From positions 2,496,001 through 2,560,000 of the forward strand of contig OZ251539.1 in assembly GCA_965243135.1 (NCBI GenBank): a stretch of 64,000 bases of DNA, in the 5' to 3' direction. This document shows positions 14,396 through 63,675 of this stretch, one piece after another. How positions within the stretch are numbered: the first letter of the stretch is position 1; each line of letters begins with the position of its first letter. Under the pieces are notes generated by a model. It made no database searches. It was not told the origin of the DNA and saw only the letters and a list, made by a program, of their open reading frames with translations. The position numbers and the translations under genes are program-made. This stretch comes from Alphaproteobacteria bacterium. Its GTDB lineage: Bacteria > Pseudomonadota > Alphaproteobacteria > MPNO01 > UBA830.

Positions 14396-15201
14396 ATGAC
14401 CTTCGAGCGGCAGCCCACGGACAAGTGGCGCAAGGAGATCCCGGGTACGCGCTGGTTCAAGGCGGATCTGCACGTCCACACCATCGACGACCATCCGGGC
14501 GGTCGGGCAAAAATGCCTGCTGGCCTGTCCGGCGATCCAGCGGATCCGCAAACGCTATCGGGCTATGCACGACGCTTTCCGAAAGCCCTCGTCAAACGCG
14601 GCGTACAGGTCGTCGGCCTGACTCCGCATTCGCCGCGCGCGGGGATCGGCCTCCGGTATCCGGCCCGACGCGGCTGCGATATAGCCGCATTCGCCGCGCG
14701 CGGGGATCGGCCGTCGGCAGTTCAATCGCCGCGCCGACCGTTCAACCGCATTCGCCGCGCGCGGGGATCGGCCCCGAAACGAGCGCAGTCTGGCGCATCG
14801 TCGACGAATGGAACGGTGGAACCGACGACGACAGCGTTCCGTTCCGGGAAAAGATTTATGCCATATTCCCCGGATTCGAGCCGTCGCTTAAAGACGGTGA
14901 ATCAGGATTGCACCTTCTGTTCCTTTTCGATCCCGAGATCGGCCGCGATCATTACCTGAAAGCGTTCGACCTTGTCATGAGTGGCGTATCGCCTTGGCAC
15001 GCCGGAAAGTTGCAGATTGCTGGAAAGCGTGCCGAAAAGGCATTCGACGAGTTGGAGGAGTTTCGGGAACGGAAGTGCTCTGTTGCGGCCGGCGGAAATC
15101 GCGCGTGGAGTTCCATGGTTCTTGGCCCCTATATCGACGCAGAGAAGAGATTTTCCGGGGATCGAAAAGCTCAAGTGCTGCAATTCTTCGATCACGGGTA
15201 A
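14396..15201 (+). pseudogene. PHP-domain protein (N-terminus of TrlF/Ppl-like PHP-ATPase), disrupted by a mini-array and apparently truncated
   Basis: WFKADLHVHT PHP motif, VGLTPH, IFPGFE, GLHLLFLFDP; removing 122 bp of inserts joins the two frames into one 227-aa ORF. Confidence 0.75.
14624..14773 (+). CRISPR. Cas-less mini-array 1: 3 x 28-bp repeat, 2 x 33-bp spacers, inside a CDS
   Basis: CCGCATTCGCCGCGCGCGGGGATCGGCC at 14624, 14685 and 14746; spacers 14652-14684 and 14713-14745; GCGGGGAT-N3-CC 3' end as in type I-E repeats. Confidence 0.85.
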
Positions 15202-47823: not shown

Positions 47824-49116
47824 ATGGCCATCCCCCGCTATTCGCGACCCCGGATGACGGCGATCTGGGCGCCCGAAAACAGGTTCCGCATCTGGTTCGA
47901 AATCGAAGCGCTCGCCTGCGAGGCGCAGGCCGAGCTGGGCCTGATCCCCAAGGAAGCCGCGAAAGCGGTCCGCGAGCGCGGGCGGTTCGAGATCGAGCGC
48001 ATAGAAGAAATCGAGCGCGAAACCAGGCACGACGTGATCGCGTTCCTGACGAATCTCGCGGAACACGTCGGCGAGGAAGCCCGCTTCGTGCATCGGGGGA
48101 TGACCTCTTCCGACGTGCTCGATACCTGTCTCGCGGTTCAGCTCGCGCGCGCTTCCGACATTCTGCTCGAGGACCTCGACGGTCTGCTGGCGGCGCTCAG
48201 GTCCCGCGCCGAGGAGTTCAGGATGACGCCTACCATCGGGCGCAGTCACGGGATTCACGCGGAGCCGACCACGTTCGGAATCAAGCTGGCCGGGCATTAC
48301 GCGGAATTCGACCGCAATCGCGCGCGGTTGCGCGCCGCGCGCGCGGAAATCGCGGCCTGCGCCCTTTCCGGAGCCGTCGGCACCTTCGCGAACATCGACC
48401 CCCGCGTCGAAGCCTACGTGGCGAAAGCCCTGGGGCTGACTCCCGAACCGGTTTCCACCCAGATCGTGCCGCGCGACCGGCATGCGGCCTTTTTCGCGAC
48501 CCTCGCCGTCGTCGCGTCTTCGGCGGAACGCCTCGCCATCGAAATCCGGCACCTGCAGCGCACCGAGCTGCGCGAGGCGGAGGAGTTCTTTTCCGCCGGC
48601 CAAAAGGGTTCGTCGGCCATGCCGCACAAGCGCAACCCGGTGCTTACGGAAAACATGACGGGCCTCGCCCGCCTGGTGCGAGCGTGCTGCCCGCCCGCGC
48701 TGGAGAACGTGGCGCTCTGGCACGAGCGCGACATCTCGCATTCCTCCGTCGAACGCGTCATCGCGCCCGACGCGACGATCACGCTCGATTTCCTGCTGGC
48801 CCGGGCGGCGGGCGTCGTCGAGAACCTGGTCGTCTATCCGGAAAACATGCGGCGAAACCTCGACGCTCTCGGCGGCCTCGTCCATTCGCAGCGCGTGCTT
48901 CTCGCGCTCACGCAGGCGGGAATGAGCCGCGAGGAGGCCTACGCCGCCGTGCAGCGCAACGCCATGGCGACGTGGCGCGACGGCGGCTCGTTTCGGGATC
49001 GGCTCGAAGCGGATCCGGAAGTGCCGATCGACAAGGCGACCCTGAACGAGCTATTCGACCTCGGTTATCACCTGAAGCACGTCGACACCATCTTCGAACG
49101 GGTCTTCGGCCCGTAG
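47824..49116 (+). CDS. purB: Adenylosuccinate lyase
   Basis: IPRYSRP, RHDVIAF, TSSDVLD, GRSHGIHAEP, SSAMPHKRNP, WHERDISHSS. Confidence 0.97.
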   Translation: MAIPRYSRPRMTAIWAPENRFRIWFEIEALACEAQAELGLIPKEAAKAVRERGRFEIERIEEIERETRHDVIAFLTNLAEHVGEEARFVHRGMTSSDVLDTCLAVQLARASDILLEDLDGLLAALRSRAEEFRMTPTIGRSHGIHAEPTTFGIKLAGHYAEFDRNRARLRAARAEIAACALSGAVGTFANIDPRVEAYVAKALGLTPEPVSTQIVPRDRHAAFFATLAVVASSAERLAIEIRHLQRTELREAEEFFSAGQKGSSAMPHKRNPVLTENMTGLARLVRACCPPALENVALWHERDISHSSVERVIAPDATITLDFLLARAAGVVENLVVYPENMRRNLDALGGLVHSQRVLLALTQAGMSREEAYAAVQRNAMATWRDGGSFRDRLEADPEVPIDKATLNELFDLGYHLKHVDTIFERVFGP

Positions 49117-49118
49117 GG

Positions 49119-49445
49119 TCAGCCCTCTTCGGAGTCGATCTGCCGCTCCGCCTCGTCCAGCAACCGGTCCATTTCCCCGCGCAGCCGCGGCTCGTCCATG
49201 CCGATGCCGCGCGCAGCGAAGTCCGCGAGAACCTTGCGGACAACGTCGGCGTCGCCGGGTTCCTCGAAATCGGAGTGCACGACCTCCTTCGCGTATTCGG
49301 CGGCGGGGTCGCCGGAAAGGCCGAACCGCTCCGCCGCCCAGAGGCCGAGCAGCCGGTTGCGGCGCGCCGTGATGCGGAACAGCTTGTCCTGATCCCGCTT
49401 GTACTTGTGCTCGAAGCTTTTCTGGCGCTCTTCCAGAGTGGCCAT
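49119..49445 (-). CDS. DUF1476 family protein (ATPase inhibitor zeta-like)
   Basis: ERQKSFEHKY, ARRNRLLGLWAA, DFEEPGDADVVRK. Confidence 0.88.
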   Translation of the reverse strand: MATLEERQKSFEHKYKRDQDKLFRITARRNRLLGLWAAERFGLSGDPAAEYAKEVVHSDFEEPGDADVVRKVLADFAARGIGMDEPRLRGEMDRLLDEAERQIDSEEG

Positions 49446-49731
49446 GGTCGTTCCTTTTGCTGACGTCGGACTGCAGCGCCGCTCATAATCCGCGTTGGAT
49501 CGTCGGGTCACGATGCGAATGGCCACAATCTACAAAGGATCGTTTACCAACACATCGAAGCGCTAATCAAGTTCGACCTCCCAACGAAGCGTTCCCAAAA
49601 CGAATGGGCGCGACAACGAATCCGCACGCGCGCCGACCATCCGTTCGGCCGGCTCTCCCTTGTCCGGACGCTCCGTCGCCATTCGGCCTTCGATCGGGAA
49701 CGCGCCCTCCCCGGCAGCCGAATTCGGCAAA

Positions 49732-49881
49732 CGATTACCCGAGCGCGCGCGGCCGCGGGCGGAGTTTGAAGCGCCGTGACTTCGGTGTCGCCCGATTACC
49801 CGAGCGCGCGCGGCCGCGGGGGCAGGCCGCCCGCCGCGCCGTCGCTTTCTTTCCGATTACCCGAGCGCGCGCGGCCGCGGG
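49732..49881 (-). CRISPR. Cas-less mini-array 2: 3 x 28-bp repeat, 2 x 33-bp spacers
   Basis: CGATTACCCGAGCGCGCGCGGCCGCGGG at 49732, 49793 and 49854; spacers 49760-49792 and 49821-49853; both spacers start with G on the minus strand. Confidence 0.8.
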
Positions 49882-50458
49882 CATCGTCGTCAGCGACGCC
49901 CCAATGATTTTCGTTCGCCGGCGCTCCGCCTATCGAACGGCCTGACGCATGAATGCCCGGCAGGCCGCAAGGCCCTCGTCTGCCCGATTGATCTTGGACG
50001 AGGGAGCCGATCATGATCGTCAAGGACGGAACGATATTCGACGGCCCGAATCGCTGGAATGACCAAACGGTCGGTAAACGCGAGACGAAAAACGCACGGT
50101 CGACACTCGTCGTCGTCTGGCCGTCGAACTCGACAAAACCCGTACGTCGAACCGCCCGGACAACGACAGGCGTTCCGTGCGCAGGCGTCAGAAAAACAGG
50201 GAAAGGTCGTCGGGACAACTTCGGAGGTCGCTCACGGAGCAACTTCCGTCCCGCCGCGGGGGATCCGCCGGAATTCCCGCTCGCCGTCACCGGGAAAACA
50301 GGCGTGTTCGCGGCATGACTTACGGCGAGAGTCGCCGCCGCATCCACGATCGGAGACAGCAGGCCAAGTCTCTGGTATCTTCGGAGCGGAAAAAGCCTGA
50401 ACCTGCCCTTCGCTTGCGCAGGCTTTCCCTGCTTGCGCATTTGGAAACGGTCTGACGG

Positions 50459-52438
50459 ATGGCCGAAAGCATCGATTTCGCGAACCCGATCTGGCAGATC
50501 GCCGACCTGCTGCGCGGCCCCTATCGCCCGTCGGAATACGAGCGCGTCATGCTGCCGATGACCGCGCTACGCCGCTTCGACTGCGCGCTCGCCCCCACCA
50601 AGGAGAAGGTCCTCGCGGATTACGAGAGCTTGAAGGACAAGCTCAAAGGCGCGCAGCTGAACGCAAAGCTGAACGCGACGGCGGGTCAGCGTTTCCACAA
50701 CCGCTCGCCGCTTGATTTCGACCGGCTGAAGGGCGATCCGGACCGGATCGCGCCGCGTCTTGCGAGCTACATCCAAGGCTTCTCGGCCAATGTGCGCCGC
50801 ATCTTCGAGTATTTCGAGTTCGGGAACGAGATCGACAGGATGCGCGAGGCGAACATTCTCTATCTCGTGGTTTCCCGATTCTGCGACGTGGACCTGCACC
50901 CGGGCAGGATCCCGAATCTGCGAATGGGCCTTATCTTCGAAGACCTGATCCGCCGCTTCAACGAGCTGGCAAACAAGACCGTGGGCGATCACTTCACGCC
51001 GCGCGAGGTGATCCGGCTAATGGTGAGCATCCTGTTCATCGAAGACGATGCGCTACTCGCGCGCCCCGGCACGGCGCACACGCTGCTCGATCCGGCCTGC
51101 GGCACCGGCGGCATGCTGGCCGAGGCGCAAAACTACCTGCGCGACCGCCACCCGAAGGCTCGGCTCTTCGTCTACGGCCAAGATTACAACAAGCGGGCCT
51201 ACGCCACCGCCGCCGCCGACATGCTGATGAAGCAGGTGGATAGCGGCGGCGACAACATCCGTTTCGGCGACAGTTTCCTCAAAGACAGGTTCAGGGGCCG
51301 AACCTTCGACTATTTCCTCACCAACCCGCCGTTCGGCATGGACTGGAAGAAGCAACGCAACAAGATCAGGCGCGAACACGAAAAGGGAGGTTTCGCCGGC
51401 CGCTTCGGCGCCGGCCTGCCGCGAGTGAGCGACGCCTCGCTGCTGTTCCTCCAGCACATGATCGCGAAATTCGAGAGGGTCGCGCCACGCGAGCGCAAGC
51501 ACGGCTCGCGCCTCGCCATCGTCTTCAGCGGGTCGCCGCTGTTCGCCGGCGGCGCGGGGTCGGGCGAGAGCGAGATCCGCAAGTGGATCATCGAGAACGA
51601 CTGGCTCGAAGCCATTGTCGCCCTGCCGGAGCGAATGTTCTACAATACCGGCATCGGCACCTATGTCTGGATCGTCACCAACCGCAAGGAGGAGCGGCGC
51701 AAGGGTTGGATCCAGCTCGTCGATGCACGCGATGCGTGGACCGGCGGCAGCGGCGCGGAGAGCAAGCGCAGCCTCGGCAACAAGCGCCGCCACATCGCCG
51801 GGAACCAGATCGACGAGATCGTGCGCCTCTACGGACGCTTCGAGGACGGCGAGCGCTCCAGGCTTTTCGACAATGCCGACTTCGGCTACACCCGCGTCAC
51901 CATCGAGCGCCCGCTGCGGCTGCGCTACCGGATGACGATCGACAGCAAGGCGCGTTTCCTCGACGCCTGCCCGGAATTGCTCGACGATGTGCAGGCCATC
52001 GACAAGGCGATCGGCGGCGAACCCTTGCCGGACTGGAATGCCGTCCGGGGCTGCATCCACGACCTGCTGCGCGAGCGCGGCGCACGCTGGACGCAAAAGG
52101 AATGGAAGCTCTTCCGCGATGTCTTCGCACGGAAGGATCCCGAGGCCGAGCCCGTCTCCGCGGGCAGTCGAGTCGGCGGGTGGGAACCCGACCCGGCGCT
52201 GCGCGATTTCGAGAACGTGCCGCTCAGGCAGAACATCGATGCCTATTTCGAGCGCGAGGTTCGACCGCACCTGCCCGATGCCTGGATGGACCGCGAGAAG
52301 GACAAGGTCGGCTACGAGATCGCCTTCAACCGCCATTTCCGCAAATACACGCCGCCGCGTTCGCTGGAGGAGATCGACGCGGACCTGAAGGCGGCGGAGA
52401 AAGAGATCGCGCGTCTGTTGCGGGAGGTAGTGATGTGA
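50459..52438 (+). CDS. hsdM: Type I restriction-modification methyltransferase subunit
   Basis: IWQIADLLRG, HFTPREVI, DPACGTGG, NPPF, MFYNTGI, VGYEI. Confidence 0.93.
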   Translation: MAESIDFANPIWQIADLLRGPYRPSEYERVMLPMTALRRFDCALAPTKEKVLADYESLKDKLKGAQLNAKLNATAGQRFHNRSPLDFDRLKGDPDRIAPRLASYIQGFSANVRRIFEYFEFGNEIDRMREANILYLVVSRFCDVDLHPGRIPNLRMGLIFEDLIRRFNELANKTVGDHFTPREVIRLMVSILFIEDDALLARPGTAHTLLDPACGTGGMLAEAQNYLRDRHPKARLFVYGQDYNKRAYATAAADMLMKQVDSGGDNIRFGDSFLKDRFRGRTFDYFLTNPPFGMDWKKQRNKIRREHEKGGFAGRFGAGLPRVSDASLLFLQHMIAKFERVAPRERKHGSRLAIVFSGSPLFAGGAGSGESEIRKWIIENDWLEAIVALPERMFYNTGIGTYVWIVTNRKEERRKGWIQLVDARDAWTGGSGAESKRSLGNKRRHIAGNQIDEIVRLYGRFEDGERSRLFDNADFGYTRVTIERPLRLRYRMTIDSKARFLDACPELLDDVQAIDKAIGGEPLPDWNAVRGCIHDLLRERGARWTQKEWKLFRDVFARKDPEAEPVSAGSRVGGWEPDPALRDFENVPLRQNIDAYFEREVRPHLPDAWMDREKDKVGYEIAFNRHFRKYTPPRSLEEIDADLKAAEKEIARLLREVVM

Positions 52439-63404: not shown

Positions 63405-63675
63405 CCGGGTTGTCGCCGAGCGCGGACTTTCCGGGTTGTCGCCGAGCGCGGACTTTCCGGGTTGTCGCCGAGCGCGGACTTTCCGGGTTGTCGCCGAGCG
63501 CGGACTTTCCGGATTGTCGCCGAGCGCGGACTTTCCGGATTGTCGCCGAGCGCGGACTTTCCGGATTGTCGCCGAGCGCGGACTTTCCGGATTGTCGCCG
63601 AGCGCGGACTTTCCGGATTGTCGCCGAGCGCGGACTTTCCGGATTGTCGCCGAGCGCGGACTTTCCGGATTGTCG
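63405..63675. repeat. 26-bp tandem repeat, 10 full copies plus 11 bp
   Basis: CCGG(G/A)TTGTCGCCGAGCGCGGACTTT from 63405; first four copies have G, the rest A. Confidence 0.97.

Follow-up and report, generated by a model that had tools for sequence, protein, structure and literature searches.

A two-insert mini-array of period 61 in an alphaproteobacterial genome and its probable origin by off-target type I-E integration

The mini-array and its genomic setting

The window, which is the whole 64,000-nucleotide stretch of DNA that was analysed, contains a small array of three identical units and two inserts (genome position 2545732). This mini-array is intergenic and is located between the gene for an ATPase-inhibitor zeta-subunit and a type I restriction-modification island (Table 1). 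Two ORFs run over the array, 49457-49945 on the plus strand and 49796-50440 on the minus strand. Neither had a match in Pfam or NCBIfam, and they were taken as chance ORFs of GC-rich DNA. Rfam gave no match in the window at gathering thresholds, no tRNA was found near the mini-array, and the promoter scan returned one weak sigma-70-like site (49460-49489, plus strand), which is not evidence of transcription. When 41 genomes of relatives, including the window's own, were searched, the match was confined to the end of the zeta-subunit gene (73-83% identity), and the search gave no orthologous intergenic site for comparison.

Table 1. Features at and around the mini-array, with the related loci of the same genome (window positions unless marked as genome positions).
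Feature	Position	Strand	Remark
Adenylosuccinate lyase gene	47824-49116	+	upstream of the mini-array
ATPase-inhibitor zeta-subunit gene	49526 to 49119	-	upstream of the mini-array
Unit copy 1	49732-49759		exact match; distal (original-site) end in a minus-strand reading of the array
Insert 1, 33 bp	49760-49792		exact opposite-strand copy of genome 3798571-3798603
Unit copy 2	49793-49820		exact match
Insert 2, 33 bp	49821-49853		no source found
Unit copy 3	49854-49881		exact match
Non-coding element, ~400 bp	~49980-50362		downstream; nine other genome copies, 71-84% identity
hsdM	50459-52438		type I restriction-modification island, beyond the ~400-bp element
hsdS-like ORF and AAA_21 ATPase			type I restriction-modification island, with hsdM
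Sibling mini-array (mini-array 1)	14624-14773 (genome 2510624)	+	three exact copies of a different 28-mer, period 61
Ectopic period-61 loci	genome 385672, 973349, 1912721, 2208565, 2510624, 2545732, 2742314, 2992257, 4477871, 5621020		ten loci, including the mini-array at 2545732

Two further observations concern the repeated DNA of the region and of the window. One copy of the ~400-bp non-coding element directly adjoins the end of the 37-nt-repeat CRISPR array (genome 5288426-5288870), and the longest ORF of the element, which is arginine-rich and has no family match, looks like a chance ORF. The window also has a 26-nt unit that is repeated in tandem almost perfectly at 63405-63675 (10.4 copies, 99% matches).

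The unit of the mini-array is the 28-mer CGATTACCCGAGCGCGCGCGGCCGCGGG, for which sequence and pattern searches found three exact copies in the window, alternating with the two inserts letter for letter as an earlier note on this DNA had described. None of 100 shuffles of the window yielded a match to this 28-mer. Across the single-contig genome of 6,103,318 bp, with up to three mismatches allowed, there were three copies and all of them were here, so the 28-mer is not the multicopy REP-like element that the earlier note had considered as a competing explanation. It was also absent from the genome_contigs and metagenome_contigs collections, in which the own genome or a very near one is possibly not included. 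On the plus strand, the bases 5' of the unit copies are A, C and C. The junctions on the minus strand read as had been noted before, both internal copies being followed by G and the terminal, distal copy by T.

Source of the inserts and a single-copy site in a related lineage

In a blastn-short search of the own genome, insert 1 had one full-length match, identical at 33 of 33 positions, which is located 1.25 Mb away from the mini-array. This donor is inside a long ORF (L020:469-2199), the C-terminal part of which matches ABC_membrane. The flanks of the donor are unrelated to the array, and the match covers exactly 49760-49792 and stops at the borders of the insert. The division into a shared unit of 28 bp and inserts of 33 bp, which had been deduced in the earlier note from the junction bases, is therefore confirmed independently. 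As the genome is very repetitive, a second copy alone would be weak evidence; 259 of 2000 random 33-mers had a second copy of at least 32 nt, and for this reason the mere presence of a second copy was dropped as an argument. It is the exact ending of the match at the borders that counts.

For insert 2, the longest matches in the own genome were 16-19 nt and gave no source there. Searches against phages (E values of at least 0.3) and plasmids (E values of at least 0.07) also gave no source, the matches being at the chance level of GC-rich DNA.

Four public runs were mapped onto positions 49100-50500 of the window. In run X2, record 16 (568 nt, depth 4.7) contains 49522-49731 followed directly by 49854-50183, so that 122 bp (49732-49853) are skipped, and 29 letters fit either side of the joint. 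The flanks in this record are ~90-94% identical to the window. In the X2 lineage a single unit copy is present between the two flanks, i.e. an empty site, as seen in a single contig from a diverged lineage. In another contig of run X2, the stretch corresponding to insert 1 is bordered on either side by flanking sequence of the donor gene, therefore the donor exists where the site is empty. Contigs with the flanks of the insert 1 donor were found in runs X8 and X2. The array itself was present in runs X8 and X10, and run X11 extended at least from copy 1 through insert 1 into the start of copy 2. The single-copy state in X2 could also have arisen from the loss of both inserts by recombination between the repeats.

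The native type I-E system and the properties of the unit

The genome has three cas1 loci at 5.26-5.31 Mb, identified by the Cas1 Pfam family, each with a large array. One of them is a complete type I-E operon (cas3, cse1, cse2, cas7, cas5, cas6e, cas1e and cas2e by NCBIfam), in which all genes are open and on one strand, and both Cas1e (301 bits) and Cas2e (95 bits) exceeded the curated cut-offs. The operon adjoins its array, ~2.8 Mb from the mini-array. This native array consists of 78 identical 28-bp repeats, with spacings of 61 in 75 of 77 cases and 62 in the other two, and spacers of 33 bp in 75 of 77 and 34 bp in two. The other two CRISPR systems have repeats of 36 and 37 nt, and their arrays have periods of 66 (108 of 114 spacings) and 74-81.

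The unit length of 28, the insert length of 33 and the period of 61 of the mini-array equal the values of the native type I-E array, and the locus is very probably the product of two off-target ('neo-CRISPR') integrations by the genome's own type I-E Cas1-Cas2, an agency that we infer from this shared geometry together with the properties of the site and of the family described below. Against this reading stand the missing AA beside the donor of insert 1, the lack of an identified source for insert 2, and the fact that the empty site is one metagenome contig with the low depth and diverged flanks given above.

The strand of the native cas genes was taken as the transcribed strand of the native array, because of the orientation of these genes, the fold of the repeat and the decayed repeat at the array end away from cas2. 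On this strand the native repeat is made up of 5 nt, a 6-bp stem with a 4-nt loop, and 7 nt, and it folds with -13.1 kcal/mol (z = -2.9), a value reached by 1 of 200 shuffles. The unit of the mini-array has no Cas6e hairpin (6-bp GC stem, 4-nt loop, 7-nt handle) on either strand. Its folds of -8.2 and -9.2 kcal/mol were matched by 181 and 156 of 200 shuffles, respectively (z = +1.05 and +0.76), in agreement with the earlier observation that the clean stem is missing.

Read in the usual orientation of I-E repeats, the native array has C as the first spacer base in 36, G in 20, T in 19 and A in 2 of 77 spacers, and the other spacer end is near background composition. In E. coli, as stated in a passage of PMC9699676, 33-bp spacers begin with a G that is derived from the AAG motif. 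The motifs surveyed for type I-E systems, in the part of PMC8482600 that deals with them, comprise AAG, AAN, AAC, AAT, AC and others, and the last base of the repeat matches the motif in 48% of I-E repeat clusters. This organism differs from E. coli type I-E in that its native first spacer base is not fixed as G, which would fit an AAN-type system, not the AAG case of E. coli. Self-matches and the composition of the first spacer base are the only sources from which the native PAM is deduced here. The native array gave only other I-E arrays or weak matches of 69-71% against phages and plasmids, and only other arrays and homologues of one self-matching spacer against 61 genomes, the window's own included.

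The two G's at the minus-strand junctions had been read as a PAM-derived signature. Because G is not fixed in the native array, they carry little information and do not fix the strand, and this part of the earlier interpretation could not be upheld. The same applies to the expectation of AA immediately 5' of the minus-strand G, as the donor of insert 1, the only one known for this locus, has AC as its adjacent dinucleotide on the minus-strand reading and GC on the other strand, so that the adaptation PAM (AA/AAG) is absent.

Two native I-E spacers, at genome 5304541 and 5304663, are the only ones that match the own chromosome, one at 4133743 (33/33) and one at 5244043 (28/28). In each case AAG is adjacent to the donor, on the wrong side for the transcribed strand, as though the spacer had gone in the wrong way round, which would explain why both are tolerated. 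The spacer with the 33/33 match comes from a gene that is conserved in relatives (88-91% matches in four genomes).

The unit of the mini-array shares 14 of 28 positions with the native repeat, a value that places it in the top 1.9% when compared with 200,000 random 28-mers. It contains an alternating pyrimidine/purine run of 9, the corresponding run in the native repeat being 10 (positions 9-18). Outside the units, the IHF consensus WATCAANNNNTTR had no match within 100 bp on either side when up to two mismatches were allowed, including the side beyond 49882 where a search for such a site had been suggested, and the AT content of the flanks is 35% and 31% vs 50% in the native leader. The AT-rich leader with an IHF-type site that characterises a functional array is therefore seen at neither side.

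Growth of the array on the minus strand, in which new inserts would join at the 49882 side as the earlier note assumed, is slightly favoured over growth on the plus strand. There are three weak hints to the minus strand. The donor dinucleotide AC has A at position -2, where A is also found in 9 of 11 other ectopic donor flanks; the alternating run is at positions 9-17 on the minus strand, which resembles the native 9-18, and at 12-20 on the plus strand; and G at both junctions is an allowed base. However, the plus-strand junction bases C and G fit the native distribution equally, both strands of the unit start with C and end with G, its identity to the native repeat (14 of 28 on the minus strand vs 13 on the plus strand) is uninformative, leader-like features are absent on both sides, and the three copies are identical, hence there is no polarity of decay.

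Compared with a canonical type I-E array, the locus has the same 28-bp duplicated core, 33-bp inserts and period of 61, and the same integrase family is present in the genome. It differs in having no Cas6e hairpin, leader or IHF-like site, and in carrying at least one self-derived insert. These differences also bear on the possibility that the locus is an ordinary orphan CRISPR array, which arrived with the restriction-modification island and is processed by Cas6 for immunity or regulation. Orphan CRISPR arrays, i.e. those with no adjacent cas genes, normally carry a recognisable family repeat. The mini-array resembles them in standing alone, far from the cas genes. Its repeats and spacers alternate regularly, it borders a defence island (hsdM, the hsdS-like ORF and the AAA_21 ATPase), and insert 2, having no match in the own genome, could be foreign. 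Its unit is nevertheless unique, unstructured DNA with no stable hairpin and just 14 of 28 positions shared with the native repeat, it occurs in no other record of genome_contigs and metagenome_contigs, and it is present as a single copy between both flanks at the same site in the related lineage. With insert 1 being a copy of a chromosomal ORF and no AT-rich leader or IHF-like site at hand, we consider an orphan array of this kind very unlikely. Elsewhere in the genome, far from any cas gene, there is an orphan array (4812991-4813200) with a near-canonical repeat (25/28 to the native I-E repeat), the last copy of which is decayed.

A genome-wide family of ectopic arrays and its interpretation

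A scan of the genome, from which the three big arrays were left out, looked for two 28-mers that agree at 25/28 positions or more, have unrelated flanks and are placed at a spacing from 50 to 74. The scan used a 28-nt window and would miss misplaced units of the 36- and 37-nt-repeat systems. There were 19 pairs at spacing 61, and 0-2 pairs at each of the 24 other spacings. These pairs belong to ten ectopic period-61 loci, the mini-array and nine more, each with its own unit (Table 1).

The ectopic loci share several properties. Among their 23 unique inserts, 10 match another part of the chromosome over the full length (at least 32/33) and three more match partially, compared with 1 of 77 spacers and one 28/28 partial match in the native array (10/23 vs 1/77, Fisher p = 6e-7). 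AA is found directly beside the donor in 5 of the 10 self-copies, the strand-averaged frequency of AA in the genome being 0.041 (binomial p = 7e-4). The ten sites have a mean of 12.8 matches to the native repeat vs 8.96 for random 28-mers, and a central alternating pyrimidine/purine run of at least 8 is present in 8 of the ten vs 5.6% of random 28-mers. At three other ectopic loci, paralogous copies of the host element hold a single 28-mer between the same flanks.

Two of the siblings were compared with the mini-array. In the one that lies in the same window (14624-14773), both 33-bp inserts are exact chromosomal copies, of 4935965-4935997 with AA beside the donor and of 362269-362301 with TT beside the donor. 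The 3' half of its unit is nearer to the native I-E repeat than is the unit of the 49732 locus (15/28). The largest relative is an 11-copy array at 2742314-2742951, in a decayed gene for an Rpn-family nuclease. It resembles the mini-array in being from the same genome, in its period of 61, in its 28-bp unit made from ordinary DNA and in its interpretation as neo-CRISPR, and differs from it in having 10 inserts and being inside a gene, whereas the mini-array has 2 inserts and is intergenic. Four of its nine unique inserts are copied from the same chromosome, its second insert is a perfect self-match with AAG beside the donor, and a paralogue with a single unit is located at 4504661-4504692.

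Several observations on the donors and on individual loci were made along with the family. The block at 4.65-4.80 Mb of the genome has a GC skew opposite to that of its replichore, and three inserts of the 11-copy array have their donors in it (4658567, 4716795 and 4740655); another two donors are at 4.91-4.94 Mb, so that 5 of 10 donors are within 0.28 Mb in total. Inversion or a recent integration of the block would be possible explanations, as would a hot spot of adaptation. The regions 1912589-1913560 and 1922717-1923690 are identical copies ~10 kb apart, with the same one-insert ectopic unit in each; as both copies have the same insert, the duplication was later than the insertion. At loci 973349 and 1912721, paralogous element copies were each used at nearly the same 28-bp site, with different inserts, on opposite strands and with borders shifted by 1-2 bp. 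At locus 2992257, a one-insert unit interrupts a multicopy element that by eye looks like an IS transposase gene, and an intact paralogue at 2794036-2794063 has a single 28-mer.

The family is also informative on whether some other process of insertion plus duplication, such as break-repair DNA capture or an unknown enzyme of a mobile element, could have made the mini-array, with the agreement with the type I-E period being a coincidence. The absence of AA beside the donor of insert 1 speaks for such a process. Against it are the excess of pairs at spacing 61 alone, a duplicated length and an insert length that are both those of the native array, the enrichment of AA beside donors across the family, and the resemblance of the ectopic sites to the native repeat, and we regard it as highly improbable. 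Tandem duplication or replication slippage of a 61-bp unit with later divergence of its inner part, to which the Tandem Repeats Finder entry for the locus (period 61, 2.5 copies, 81% matches) and a caution in the earlier note would point, is refuted, since the 28-mers are 100% identical while the inserts show 24% and 27% identity to each other and to the next 33 bp past the last copy, i.e. chance level, and since insert 1 is an exact copy of a distant locus.

Off-target integration by the type I-E Cas1-Cas2 is therefore the explanation that we prefer for the mini-array. In such a scheme, the integrase would take a 28-bp intergenic stretch for a repeat, and two staggered attacks 28 bp apart would allow a 33-bp prespacer to be ligated in, after which gap repair would duplicate the 28 bp. 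Two rounds would lead to the order of repeat-insert-repeat-insert-repeat. At least one of the prespacers would have come from the own chromosome, which would be naive adaptation from self DNA. Recognition probably depended on the central CG-rich alternating pyrimidine/purine run of the site, as in the native repeat, and not on a leader. The use of a site that is not a CRISPR repeat is consistent with the suggestion in the earlier note that the integrase had recognised a degenerate site.

As the unit has no Cas6e hairpin, its transcript, if there is any, would probably not be cut into crRNA. The array would then be a neutral scar, which could explain why a self-matching insert is tolerated. The simplest reading of the ectopic arrays in general is that they are neutral scars, not turned into crRNA, because they keep self-matches with AAG while the functional array keeps almost none. 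The view of the mini-array as a record of acquisition, and not evidently of immunity, is supported by these results, with the lack of processing being judged from the fold only.

Nivala, Shipman and Church (Nat Microbiol 2018) reportedly described neo-CRISPR loci formed by non-canonical integration by the E. coli type I-E Cas1-Cas2. The process that we propose for the present locus is the one attributed to them and is already known. Neo-CRISPR formation or off-target integration is also treated in passages of bioRxiv 10.1101/148544, PMC7054753, PMC11788318 and PMC6698737. The demonstrations of off-target spacer integration are mainly from E. coli overproducing Cas1-Cas2. The natural evidence, which comes from two other species, is described in a citing passage of 10.1101/148544 as 'circumstantial' so far. 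As far as these passages go, the E. coli events and ours are alike in several ways: a genomic site outside the array serves as the repeat, an insert of spacer length is found between duplications of repeat length, repeated use leads to a small new array, and both the I-E subtype and the 28/33 geometry are the same. On the same basis they differ in that the events here are natural and not driven by overexpression, and in that in silico analysis reveals the donor of an insert, an empty site and nine siblings together. With a donor, a product and an unoccupied site each identified, the locus is a firm natural case, and the single-copy site, the 28-mer and the donor are concrete substrates for integration assays.

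We lean slightly towards the view that a burst of off-target type I-E integration has left a natural record across this genome, with ten loci and 23 unique inserts, nearly half of them self-copied, in which donors, empty sites and the native array can be compared directly. If this is true, it would give the intrinsic target rule of the integrase in a wild organism, namely a central alternating CG-rich run that is used independently of a leader, and it would show the raw, self-dominated input of naive adaptation. It would also be direct evidence that selection purges self-spacers from the functional array only (10/23 ectopic vs 1/77 native), and the ectopic arrays would be a source from which new CRISPR loci could arise. 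The locus also calls for caution in annotation, as a small 'orphan CRISPR array' whose spacers target the own genome can be a scar instead of an immune locus.

Taken together, the mini-array and its nine siblings suggest that naive adaptation in this bacterium takes up much self DNA, that misplaced arrays may keep such DNA because they are not read, and that the integrase would need little beyond the central part of the repeat.
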